DNA of 32,478 bases from an uncultured Streptococcus sp. (GCA_963553705.1 CAUVQK010000001.1:1-32478); one strand, 5' to 3'. Shown: positions 29,941 through 32,478, counted from the stretch's first letter. The notes: generated by a model not told the origin, from the letters alone. Program-made: numbers and translations.

Positions 29941-30123
29941 CTATTCATCCTCCAGTACATCTTTTAGGATTTCTTCGATTTGGTTGATACGCTCTGGTGT
30001 TTGGCGTCGGCCTTTTAGGAGGTCTCCCACATAGACGCGTGATACACCCATTTGTCGGGCCAACCATGCGGCCGACTTTCCTTTTTTGACTAGTGCGATT
30101 CGTACTCGCTTTTCAAATAACAT
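29941..30123 (-). CDS. Cro-like XRE HTH protein
   Basis: LARQMGVSRVYVGDLLKGRR. Confidence 0.85.
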   Translation of the reverse strand: MLFEKRVRIALVKKGKSAAWLARQMGVSRVYVGDLLKGRRQTPERINQIEEILKDVLEDE

Positions 30124-30124
30124 G

Positions 30125-30337
30125 CTAACTCTCCTCCCTGAAATAGTTGATATCCACGTTAAAAGCGTCAGATAATTTGCATATTAGTTCAAAACTAGGT
30201 TTTTTTACTTTGCCATTCCGTATTGCTGGCAATAATGAAGTGCTGATATTTGCTCTTCTTGCCACTTCTGCCTTGGTTAGCTCAGTTTTGTCCAATAACT
30301 CGCTTATTTTGTTCCACAATATATTGTGTTTACACAT
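30125..30337 (-). CDS. XRE-family HTH protein
   Basis: EVARRANIS.S.L..IRNGK.KKPSFE.I.KLSDAFNV.I.YF; ATG at 30337 after AAGGAG. Confidence 0.88.
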   Translation of the reverse strand: MCKHNILWNKISELLDKTELTKAEVARRANISTSLLPAIRNGKVKKPSFELICKLSDAFNVDINYFREES

Positions 30338-30403
30338 TGTTTTCAACTCCTTACGCACAACATGTAGGGTTGTAATGTTGACTCACAACTCAATATGTTA
30401 TAC
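30314..30403. promoter_or_regulatory. Tandem NrdR-box-like palindromes
   Basis: cCACAATATATTGTGt (30314-30329), gCACAACATGTAGGGt (30355-30370) and weaker aCTCAATATGTTATAc (30388-30403), compared with consensus acaCwAtATaTwGtgt. Confidence 0.6.
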
Positions 30404-30406
30404 ACT
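30378..30406 (+). promoter_or_regulatory. sigmaA promoter for the 103-aa + strand gene
   Basis: TTGACT-17 bp-TACACT. Confidence 0.6.
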
Positions 30407-30478
30407 TAATATGTCTTCATCATCATTACCTTCTACTTCGATGTTTAGACACACTCTTAAAAGAAACGAGGTGATATT

Positions 30479-30790
30479 ATGTTTAAGATTACTGGCTTAG
30501 AAGAGCTTGAAAAGCAACTTTCTCAGTTAGAACGGAATGCTAATCGTTTTGATGGCGAGCACACGGTTTCTTTCGATGACCTGTTCACACCGTCATTTAT
30601 GATTAAATACACGAGTTTTGACTCTATTGATGAATTCGTTGAATCTAGCGGTTTTGATTTCCAAAACCAGGAAGAAAATGACGAAAGCTCATTGGATGAA
30701 TTTGTTCGCGAAAATACATCCTTTGATGATTGGCATTCAATGCAAGAGAAAGCTGCTGAACTCTGGGCTCTTAAACGGCTTGGACTCTAG
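30479..30790 (+). CDS. Acidic hypothetical protein, moron-like (opposite strand to the early operon)
   Basis: GAGGTGA RBS and own promoter; LF...FM...T.F.SIDEF...SGF...LDEFV..NT.F..W..M. Confidence 0.8.
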   Translation: MFKITGLEELEKQLSQLERNANRFDGEHTVSFDDLFTPSFMIKYTSFDSIDEFVESSGFDFQNQEENDESSLDEFVRENTSFDDWHSMQEKAAELWALKRLGL

Positions 30791-30911
30791 GCTTAAATGA
30801 TTGAATTTCTTCAATCGTCTCTGTTAACTGTTCGCATTGCTCTTTTGCAGTGTCGAGCAGTTTTTTTAGGTCGTCGATATTTTCAATTTTGATCGTCGTT
30901 GTCAGTTCCAT
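30771..30911 (-). CDS. 46-aa coiled-coil protein (not in ORF track)
   Basis: AAGGAGGTGA RBS; MELTTTIKIENIDDLKKLLDTAKEQCEQLTETIEEIQSFKPRVQAV. Confidence 0.7.
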   Translation of the reverse strand: MELTTTIKIENIDDLKKLLDTAKEQCEQLTETIEEIQSFKPRVQAV

Positions 30912-31074
30912 GCTCTCACCTCCTTCGGATGGTATGTCACTTTATCTTGTAAATTCTTGCTGAATGTTTTAGGTTTCTTGCTGATTTTGTTCCCACCTCT
31001 TCTCCTAACCTCAAGCAGTAGGTATTATGAATCTAGCTGCCTGCTTGCTTGAGGTTGTTGAGGAGGTGAAAAAT

Positions 31075-31263
31075 ATGGAAAAAGAGAACAAGCCTTTTCC
31101 GTCTGATAAGTTAGAAGCTTTGGCGTTGCTTTATGTTGAAAAATCATCTGACTTAAAGAATCTTTCTCCTGAGTCTTTATTAAGTCTGTACAATCTTGCT
31201 TACGATAAACTTCGCAAGGCTGATGCTGAAGAAAAACCAAATCCAATGGGGTACTTTCAGTAG
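31075..31263 (+). CDS. 62-aa hypothetical protein, moron-like
   Basis: GAGGAGGTGA RBS before the ATG at 31075. Confidence 0.7.
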   Translation: MEKENKPFPSDKLEALALLYVEKSSDLKNLSPESLLSLYNLAYDKLRKADAEEKPNPMGYFQ

Positions 31264-31415
31264 AAAATTAGCGTTTTAGCGGTGCTAATCAAATTTGCCA
31301 TTGAGTTTGTTAGATTCGCTAACTTATCAGGGTCTGATGTTTCCTTGGACACATTTTTGAGTAATTCGAGTTGCTCCTTGATGGTGTCCAGGGCTTTTTG
31401 TGTTTCCTTAGTCAT
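31257..31415 (-). CDS. 52-aa helical protein, first gene of the early lytic operon
   Basis: GGAGGGGGTGA RBS before the ATG at 31415. Confidence 0.65.
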   Translation of the reverse strand: MTKETQKALDTIKEQLELLKNVSKETSDPDKLANLTNSMANLISTAKTLIFY

Positions 31416-31467
31416 GCTCTCACCCCCTCCCGGTGGAAAATAATCCATTGAATCAGTTACATTTTTG

Positions 31468-31496
31468 TTGACATCCAATGGAATATCTTACATAAT
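31468..31496 (+). promoter_or_regulatory. Lysogenic (repressor) promoter
   Basis: TTGACA-17 bp-CATAAT, pointing toward the repressor gene. Confidence 0.75.
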
Positions 31497-31609
31497 GTAA
31501 GCATAAGAAATAAGCGCACGTTCTGAAAGCTACCTATCACTGTCTTGGCGGACTCGTTTTCTGGGGCTTCATTTGTGCTGATTTGCTTATCAATTTAGCT
31601 TACAAGGTT

Positions 31610-31638
31610 AGTATAATGGAAATTTTTACATTAGTCAA
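31610..31638 (-). promoter_or_regulatory. Early lytic promoter
   Basis: TTGACT-17 bp-TATACT, pointing toward the early genes. Confidence 0.8.
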
Positions 31639-31693
31639 TAGGTAAATGTAATTTTTTGCATTTTTCTTCCTTGTGTTTAGGGAGATGATTATA

Positions 31694-32104
31694 ATGTCGC
31701 TGTTGCAGAGGGTTAAAGATTTAGTTAACCTGAAGAAAATTACCATTGCGGAATTAGAAAGAGTTACTGGTCTTAGCCAGGGCAGCATACGAAATTGGGA
31801 TAAAACTAGTCCGGGTGTAGATAAGGTGCAGAAGGTTGCTGAGTATTTTAATGTCTCAACGGACTACCTAACCGGACGAACCGAACAACCTTATTATGCC
31901 CTTACCGAAAAAGAAAAGTTGGACATTGGACAGGAGGTAGATCGCCTGCTAGACGGTATGGCTACCAATGCAGAGGTCAACTTTTACGGTGAACCAATGA
32001 CTGACGAAGGTAAGGCTGCGCTTAAGGCGGCTATCCAAATGGCCATGGAGCTTAACAAGCAAAAGGCCAAGCAACACTTCACGCCTAAAAAATACAGAAA
32101 CTGA
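31694..32104 (+). CDS. Prophage repressor (XRE HTH, ImmR-like, no S24 peptidase domain)
   Basis: ITIAELER..GLSQGSI.NW....P..DKVQKVAEYFNVSTDYL.GRT; GGGAG RBS before the ATG at 31694. Confidence 0.9.
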   Translation: MSLLQRVKDLVNLKKITIAELERVTGLSQGSIRNWDKTSPGVDKVQKVAEYFNVSTDYLTGRTEQPYYALTEKEKLDIGQEVDRLLDGMATNAEVNFYGEPMTDEGKAALKAAIQMAMELNKQKAKQHFTPKKYRN

Positions 32105-32118
32105 TTTGAGGTGACGCC

Positions 32119-32478
32119 ATGACAATCGGTGATGAGGTCGACAAGCTATATCGTGCGCATGCAACGTACGATGCGCGTCGCATTGCCAAGGATAAGAAGA
32201 TTGACATACTGGTCATGCCGTTGGACTCCGATACCTGCGGTCTGACGGTCAGAAACAGTCGTTTTAACACTATCATCCTCAATGAGCTGATTGAGGAGAA
32301 TTTACAAGAGTATACACTCTGCCATGAGCTGGGCCACTGCGTCTTGCATAAGCAGGCTAGCACTCCATTCATGCGATCAGTCTCTGTATCGTCATCCATC
32401 ATGCGCATGGAGGCGGAGGCGCATCGCTTTGCCTTTGAGTTGCTCAATAGGCAGTATGCAGAGTTGTCGCTCATGTCT
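32119..32478 (+). CDS. ImmA/IrrE-family metallopeptidase (anti-repressor), truncated by the window end
   Basis: GAGGTGA RBS; MTIGDEVDKLYRAHATYD...CHELGHCVLH...EAEAHRFA (HExxH); absent from the ORF track because it has no stop codon in the window. Confidence 0.9.
   Translation, partial: MTIGDEVDKLYRAHATYDARRIAKDKKIDILVMPLDSDTCGLTVRNSRFNTIILNELIEENLQEYTLCHELGHCVLHKQASTPFMRSVSVSSSIMRMEAEAHRFAFELLNRQYAELSLMS

Follow-up and report, generated by a model that had tools for sequence, protein, structure and literature searches.

Why should the immunity switch of a temperate phage keep one and the same hexanucleotide in the loop of a hairpin that is transcribed from both sides? This question is raised by a stretch of 32,478 nucleotides from an uncultured Streptococcus sp., referred to below as the window. 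Here, we show that the module in question is the control region of a temperate-phage immunity switch of a type that is widespread in phages of Lactobacillales. It points to a layer of RNA control so far unrecognised, for which mutual antisense action of the two mRNA leaders is a plausible interpretation that we infer from the conserved anatomy.

The window represents a prophage with the lytic genes running leftwards on the minus strand and the lysogeny module located at the right end on the plus strand. This module contains the gene of a repressor of 139 aa with an XRE-type HTH domain (31685..32104, plus strand; Pfam HTH_3, E 1.9e-7; PHROG 8, E 8e-22), relatives of which are present in 387 phage records. 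It is followed in the same direction by the gene of an ImmA/IrrE-like metalloprotease (32119..32478, plus strand, running off the window end) that shows the HELGH motif of the HEXXH type (Peptidase_M78, E 1e-8; PHROG 87, metallo-protease, E 1e-17). An HTH repressor with an adjacent, co-directional Peptidase_M78 gene is expected of an ImmR/ImmA-type module, whose protease would cleave the repressor on induction, and the assignment of the pair to this type in a preliminary description of this DNA is supported by Pfam.

On the lytic side the arrangement is less simple. The first open reading frame downstream of the leftward promoter (31257..31415, minus strand) encodes 52 aa behind the strong ribosome binding site GGAGGGGGTGAG and has no family match. 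It is followed by an ORF on the plus strand, one on the minus strand (PHROG 3882) and another one on the plus strand (PHROG 2211), and then by two small Cro-like HTH genes on the minus strand, the first of them (30337..30125) recognised by ORF and family search and the second (30123..29941) having a homologue that directly follows the switch in a related genome (G039). Small ORFs on alternating strands thus fill about 1.1 kb (30360-31440), namely 31415..31257 (minus), 31075..31263 (plus), 30911..30771 (minus) and 30479..30790 (plus), and the convergent pairs among them overlap at their 3' ends. The two small minus-strand ORFs between the switch and the Cro-like genes have a common LDT[IA]KEQ.E.L stretch and may be paralogues. 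Of the lytic promoter as described at first the promoter itself holds, but a Cro-like gene does not lie directly next to it here as it does in all 11 relatives examined. Weak terminator-like sites are located at 31376-31393 (plus) and 31100-31077 (minus), their number corresponding to chance expectation, and the leftward transcript could end at the latter before it reaches the Cro-like genes.

Between the two gene sets two predicted promoters are directed at each other. P+ (TTGACA-17-CATAAT, 31468..31496, plus strand) agrees with the consensus at 11 of 12 positions and is directed at the repressor gene, and P- (TTGACT-17-TATACT, 31638..31610, minus strand) agrees at 10 of 12 and is directed leftwards at the early genes. 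Both the repressor-side and the lytic-side promoter, claimed before to stand face to face, were found by a consensus scan, which in the region 30300-32478 returned 7 promoter-like sites compared with 4.1 +/- 2.3 in shuffled sequences. With starts placed at the usual distance of 7 nt from the -10 box, and thus predicted, transcription would begin at about 31503 from P+ and at about 31603 from P-, the latter being the G of GUAAGC. Since P+ and P- converge with predicted starts about 100 bp apart, the first 100 nt or so of both mRNAs would be complementary, and the mutual complementarity of the two 5' ends would extend over about 101 nt. By sequence prediction this is a face-to-face switch, i.e., convergent lysogenic and lytic promoters with overlapping transcripts. 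A perfect TATAAT on the plus strand (31612-31617), overlapping the -10 box of P- and lacking a recognisable -35 box, might serve the repressor gene as a weak second start. Four of 15 sequencing runs, all with small shares and available as contigs, were compared with the window. A contig of 167 nt from an RNA library of a relative covers 31369-31535, and the further contigs cover only 32001-32330; neither carries information on strand, start or level.

The promoters of the preliminary switch description thus stand, but four operator-like sites on and beside both of them had been overlooked. They are near-palindromes of 16 bp with the form ATGKAA-N4-TTRCAT: O1 (ATTGAATCAGTTACAT, 31447..31462) just outside the -35 box of P+, belonging to the repeat family D1/D3; O2 (ATGGAATATCTTACAT, 31478..31493) within the P+ spacer; O3 (ATGGAAATTTTTACAT, 31616..31631) within the P- spacer; and O4 (ATGTAATTTTTTGCAT, 31646..31661) outside the -35 box of P- and inside the repressor leader. 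Each promoter has one site in its spacer and one outside its -35 box, and the members of the two pairs are 31 and 30 bp apart. If up to one mismatch is allowed and both strands of the window are searched, this pattern gives 7 matches compared with 0.77 expected, a number reached in none of 100 shuffles. The matches correspond to the 4 sites between 31447 and 31661, and there is none anywhere else in the 32 kb. We read O1 to O4 as putative repressor operators, and predicted operators at the lytic promoter, here with one site per promoter spacer, are typical of a convergent phage switch. An inverted repeat of 20 nt (31434-31453/31473-31492, 80% complementary) spans O1 and O2 and appears in the modelled lytic leader as a second hairpin downstream of the main one.

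The main hairpin occupies the region transcribed from both sides (31497..31603, inverted repeat I3), which on each strand is predicted to fold into a long imperfect hairpin with the basal helix GTAAGC/GCTTAC (31497-31502 with 31598-31603). Its apex GTC-TTGGCG-GAC is found at 31542..31553 exactly as had been claimed, and the arm pairs GTAAGC/GCTTAC, ATAAGC/GCTTAT and GCAC/GTGC are present as well. The hexaloop (31545-31550) reads UUGGCG in the plus RNA and CGCCAA in the minus RNA and is closed by U-A and C-G pairs; together with these it forms the 10-mer TCTTGGCGGA (31543-31552) whose conservation is described below. The minimum free energy (MFE) folds of both strands put the GUC/GAC hairpin on top, which bears out the capped hairpin of the preliminary description. 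In these predicted folds the UUGGCG hexanucleotide and its complement are displayed in hairpin loops, as in kissing-loop antisense control. In the window the loop-closing pair has a probability of 0.98 on both strands, compared with 0.24 (plus) and 0.67 (minus) if the flanks are shuffled. Within a modelled lytic leader of 204 nt the hairpin takes up nt 1-107, its loop having a probability of 0.99-1.0 of being unpaired, and within a modelled repressor leader of 198 nt the apex hairpin competes with other folds and its closing pair has a probability of 0.55.

What did not hold is that the hairpin exceeds chance when judged from this single sequence. The segment 31503-31603 folds with -20.0 kcal/mol on the plus strand (z -0.21; 86 of 200 shuffles as good) and with -17.9 kcal/mol on the minus strand (z -0.87; 43 of 200), i.e., it is no more stable than shuffled sequences. 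Nor is the hexanucleotide itself rare, as TTGGCG and CGCCAA occur 41 times on the two strands of the whole window (14.4 expected from dinucleotide shuffles, of which the largest count was 26) with no strand bias, an excess that is probably an effect of codon usage. That the hairpin is more than chance follows from comparison, because diverged phages have the 10-mer, the hairpin and both promoters in common.

A DNA search in 61 genomes, comprising 60 relatives and the genome of the window itself (G000), gave matches in three including G000, and the two relatives concerned (G039 and G054) belong to other families of the same order. Both have the identical 10-mer. G039 shows the same layout with its own operators (ATGGAA-N4-TTCCAT) and an identical CTGTCTTGGCGGACT, and its -10 boxes lie 45 and 54 nt from the motif, compared with 44 and 53 nt in the window. 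Starting from the repressor protein instead, a search unbiased by the motif led to 31 viral loci, of which 17 have the face-to-face layout and 14 the ordinary back-to-back one. Among the 17, TCTTGGCGGA is found in 7, its reverse complement in 3, the variant TTTGGTCGG with one extra base in the loop (L010-type loci) in 6 and none of them in one (L008), which has a large apical loop. The preliminary description had named lack of loop conservation in related phages as an outcome that would speak against it; the loop is conserved, exactly in 10 of 17 loci and as the one-base variant in 6 of 17. Because of L008 and the six variant loci, the exact loop must be regarded as dispensable. Two named phages with the layout were found by tblastn, Streptococcus phage IPP53 with the forward and Enterococcus phage VEsP-1 with the flipped motif. 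The IPP53 region occurs in 14 records of the phage collection and is unannotated in all of them; they include pneumococcal phages IPP14, IPP48, IPP54 and SpGS-1, Javan355 and Javan363 of S. oralis and Javan207 of S. equinus. A blastn search of this collection with the switch gave no match for the queries from the window or from L013, and longer queries from other loci did find matches.

More relatives were collected by pattern scans, which demand the 10-mer and CTTAYR-N5-9-TATA and thus yield sets biased by construction. The forward scan of viral contigs gave 80 loci (62 distinct), of which 43 show both promoters and 2 a single one, the other 17 being chance matches in coding DNA, and the flipped scan gave 74 loci (63 distinct), about half of them genuine switches. 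When promoters were scored on both sides, 108 loci with 67 distinct inner regions were kept. Their spacer measures 17 bp in nearly all cases, the -10 box of P- is almost always TATACT, and 96-124 bp separate the two -10 boxes across related regions. One of the flipped groups matches Leuconostoc phage phiMH1. Among the forward groups, one is found in identical form in a Ligilactobacillus genome and others in Enterococcus genomes. Three of the genome-contig records listed are clearly genuine, namely Enterococcus sp. AZ126, an Enterococcaceae bacterium and Ligilactobacillus sp. WC1T17; most of the other matches listed fall by chance in unrelated phyla. The order was also sampled with 401 species genomes (400 drawn and G000), of which 9 including G000 match the forward pattern, 7 of these looking genuine, and none matches the reversed control pattern. 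To judge by these sequences, carriers of the motif are phages of pneumococci, oral streptococci, enterococci and lactobacilli.

Some of these loci have peculiarities of their own. The phages of the Ligilactobacillus type (L004-L027, about 1220-1440 in each) encode a Cro-like protein of 63 aa (MPETLNGR...) that is well conserved despite differing operators. A box GTAAGT-N6-TGATAGAAA is located upstream of their P+ and an inverted copy of it at the start of the minus transcript; in L023 (1201-1250) tandem copies of CTATTAAGTAAG are found just upstream of the plus promoter, and related loci have a single GTAAG box. The box that begins with GTAAGT may be the site of the 63-aa protein and, if so, part of the basal arm of the hairpin doubles as a DNA site. 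Another arrangement is present in L051 (270-400) and L113, with a long nearly perfect hairpin with the apex TTATC-TTGGCG-GATAA just after the end of an ORF of 57 aa, which read by eye is possibly ribbon-helix-helix-like, and a minus-strand promoter (TTGATA-17-TATAAT) about 50 nt away that is directed into the hairpin. The same loop in a different antisense context is reminiscent of plasmid copy control.

At 75% identity the 67 regions fall into 14 clusters, between which the arms cannot be aligned. Nevertheless, all 14 cluster representatives yield, as the MFE fold of the plus strand, a long imperfect hairpin that carries the hexaloop at its tip. When the 10-mer was kept and both flanks were dinucleotide-shuffled (30 shuffles each), the mean probability of the loop-closing C:G pair dropped from 0.87 to 0.17 on the plus strand and from 0.79 to 0.21 on the minus strand, and the native value exceeded the shuffle mean in 14 of 14 representatives (plus) and in 12 of 14 (minus). 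The mean MFE z across representatives is -1.49 (plus) and -1.44 (minus). The share of G-U pairs is 10% on each strand, which favours neither of them.

Formal support by covariation is weak. RNAalifold gave no consensus structure for a MAFFT alignment of 37 sequences, and for the 11 sequences closest to the window it gave the basal and apical helices only. The basal helix GUAAGC:GCUUAC is present in all 11 members of this group, with a double change from G-C to A-U in G039. The third apex pair can be followed in 40 distinct contexts and is G-C, A-T or T-A in 27 and G-T in one of them, C standing opposite G in 17 of 18 cases, T opposite A in 6 of 8 and A opposite T in 4 of 4. If the contexts are lined up on the core without gaps, this pair forms in 28 of 40 of them compared with 23-25 of 40 for slid partners, figures that are counts over sequences related to each other and not probabilities. 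Within clusters the exchanges A-T/G-C, C-G/T-A and T-A/A-T are found, and variable columns are less frequent among paired than among unpaired ones (7/36 vs 38/72, 8/42 vs 44/83 and 6/38 vs 28/68). A scan that did not require the core detected the variant GGT-CGCCAA-ACT (L326/L328), in which the same loop is closed by GGT/ACT instead of TC/GA.

The apex occurs in both orientations. L004 and L005, both oriented by their repressor genes, have a co-linear frame with common ends in the same order (5' TARAGCRTAGTWAATAAGC, 3' TTTTTTCTATCAA..TAACTTACA) and an opposite apex, and VEsP-1, judged by its repressor, also has a flipped apex. Of the clusters, eight are forward and six flipped, the loci derived from patterns having been oriented by the position of the CTTAYR/-10 element and a weak check of ORF length; a right-hand ORF of at least 60 aa is open in 33 of the 35 forward loci and in 21 of the 28 flipped ones, with flanks too short to decide the orientation. 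An apex that is found both ways round, with neither strand favoured, fits a sense/antisense pair and not a signal of one RNA. Such a flip would be survived by a complementary loop pair or by a DNA site and should not be survived by a signal that is read on one mRNA. The strand symmetry predicted by mutual antisense action is thus present. The surroundings of the core differ from group to group. Operators read ATGGAA-N4-TTACAT here, ATAGAAAAT in IPP53-like phages and CCCATAATAATGT in the Ligilactobacillus type; the small HTH protein encoded after P- in all 11 relatives examined belongs to at least three unrelated sequence types; and the host genera comprise Streptococcus, Enterococcus and Ligilactobacillus. 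As operators, Cro-type genes and hosts all vary, the reader of the core cannot be a phage-specific DNA-binding protein.

What function could then maintain the hexamer? The reading that we put forward, and to which we give about an even chance, is that the lytic and repressor leaders are mutual cis-encoded antisense RNAs whose loops make the first contact, in addition to polymerase collisions. Each leader would fold into a long imperfect 5' hairpin with the hexaloop at its apex, contact between the loops would start pairing that then spreads into a duplex, and this duplex would inactivate or destabilise the rarer transcript. Its effect would add to the collisions of the converging polymerases, and the more active promoter would silence the other one at the RNA level, resulting in a sharper and locked choice between lysogeny and lytic growth. 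The activity of the promoters, the pairing of the RNAs and its consequences are what we infer beyond the anatomy described above. If both predicted promoters fire, a complementary loop on a cis-encoded partner RNA follows. Converging transcripts are always complementary, and complementarity alone cannot account for the retention of this hexamer. Its retention would require something further, be it a kinetic advantage of the loop, a host factor or cross-talk between phages. As first formulated, the proposal of mutual antisense leaders has kept its layout, its capped hairpin, the conservation of the loop and the symmetry of the strands; the fold of the single sequence is not significant.

A host factor could also act on hairpins that work separately within each mRNA, protecting its leader from 5' exonucleases or guiding its processing, with the loop bound by this conserved factor. 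This would explain an invariant hexamer across phages with different repressors, and it agrees with the first nucleotides of the minus RNA (GUAAGC) being paired at the base of the hairpin and with the conserved start sequences of both RNAs. We know of no candidate for such a factor, and the occurrence of both apex orientations in homologous frames means that a strand-specific site would move from the repressor mRNA to the lytic mRNA with its effect reversed, so that we regard this explanation as unlikely. The flip would be tolerated if a conserved host protein recognised the core of 10 bp as double-stranded DNA, e.g., as a roadblock between the two promoters, or if the inverted repeat formed a cruciform, the RNA structure being incidental. 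The invariance of the sequence in either orientation, the equal symmetry on both strands and the position of the core near the midpoint between the promoters speak for this. The part that is conserved is the non-palindromic loop, whereas the adjoining stem varies with pairing kept (GTC/GAC, ATC/GAT, TTC/GAA, GGT/ACT), which is the reverse of what a dimeric binder gives and argues against a dimeric DNA-binding site. Moreover, the long complementarity of the arms is kept with unrelated sequences in 14 clusters and is unneeded by a site of 10 bp, and the same loop on a long stem returns in the different antisense context of L051. A DNA site is, in our opinion, distinctly improbable. Among specific identities of the core, CtsR, CcpA, LexA-type and CIRCE boxes were considered and rejected by their consensus sites, and pairing with the 3' end of 16S rRNA was rejected as well.

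Two further explanations dispense with pairing of the leaders. Transcriptional interference alone might matter, as in coliphage 186, with hairpin and loop as inherited baggage of a recombining module. Convergent promoters by themselves can give interference (PMC5001618, PMC6593788), and one face-to-face relative does without the motif. Neutral baggage is not expected to keep fold and loop while the arms diverge beyond alignment, and with shuffled flanks the loop is presented far less often than with the native flanks; we consider interference as the sole function improbable, at a level only slightly below that of the DNA site. As an alternative, the preliminary description itself had suggested that an antiterminator binds the loop, to which other RNA-binding proteins of the phage may be added. 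A conserved hairpin near the beginning of the lytic transcript would suit such a protein, but the motif is independent of the early gene set of the phage, it is flipped in many phages, and family searches identified no antiterminator gene beside it, which makes this the least credible suggestion and a very improbable one. Mutual antisense leaders remain our preferred reading after this comparison. It can be extended to an RNA "handshake" among heteroimmune phages of Lactobacillales, in which the common UUGGCG/CGCCAA loop would allow the leader of a resident prophage to form a kissing contact with the opposing leader of another phage, either incoming or resident in the same cell. We consider this speculative extension rather unlikely; if true, it would mean cross-talk, incompatibility or cross-immunity at the RNA level, as between plasmids, across phages unrelated by protein immunity.

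Descriptions of Gram-positive phage switches present them as circuits of proteins (CI/Cro, CI/MOR, ImmR/ImmA) whose promoters diverge, and new here is the combination of convergent promoters with a conserved structured overlap and a defined loop. The statement that an RNA layer is undescribed for such prophages agrees with our search, as neither an Rfam family nor a paper was found in the searchable full texts (queried for convergent Gram-positive switches, for kissing together with lysogeny and for the motif as DNA or RNA); an older description in subscription journals is possible. If the leaders pair, the stability and induction of prophages in these bacteria would have an RNA component. For the annotation of switch regions the motif would serve as a simple marker.

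Among known phage switches, coliphages 186 and P2 share with the module the face-to-face promoters and a repressor that acts at the lytic promoter. The overlap in coliphage 186 is not known to us to contain a hairpin or loop that is conserved. Neither are the proteins related, and 186 and P2 do not use an ImmA-type protease for induction. For their converging lytic and lysogenic promoters, transcriptional interference is the accepted mechanism (PMC5001618, PMC7708051). The Lactobacillales phages mv4, A2 and TP901-1 have the same gene pair, a CI-like repressor and a small Cro/MOR-like HTH protein, with operators within the promoter spacers (PMC10848424), and differ in their divergent back-to-back promoters. 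Phage mv4 was considered and rejected as a published precedent, its promoters being arranged back to back in an intergenic region of 158 bp with no overlap and no hairpin.

The nearest parallels are found in plasmids. In R1 (IncFII) the loops of CopA and CopT are CGCCAA and UUGGCG, and UUGG forms a YUNR U-turn. The term plasmid-type loop, used at first for the apex, is justified as far as the hexanucleotide is concerned, which is identical to the recognition loop of ColIb-P9 (IncI-alpha), where the title of one paper names the 5'-rUUGGCG-3' loop motif of the Inc RNA (Asano et al. 1998). It does not extend to homology with the plasmid RNAs, as Rfam searches of the window region (E up to 10) and of 16 related loci (E up to 1) gave no match to any family. 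ColIb-P9 and R1 use short dedicated antisense RNAs on the leader of a replication initiator in plasmids of Gram-negative bacteria, whereas in Gram-positive phages two mRNA leaders would act mutually, and the genes flanking the overlap are a repressor gene and early phage genes instead of a replication initiator. The likeness of the loops is thus probably convergent.

Closer in architecture and host group is the prgQ/prgX system of plasmid pCF10 from Enterococcus faecalis, likewise of Lactobacillales, in which convergent promoters have overlapping 5' regions. Neither sequence nor Rfam similarity connects it with the phage module. It is a pheromone-driven switch of plasmid conjugation and not an immunity switch with an ImmA-type protease, and the overlap in the phage module differs in being one symmetric hairpin with a conserved hexaloop. 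Nevertheless, its two operons repress each other via RNAs, one arm being a cleavage of the repressor mRNA that depends on RNase III and is guided by the opposing RNA (PMC3181467). By analogy, this reciprocal RNA regulation of two operons makes pCF10 the closest tested counterpart of the phage module.
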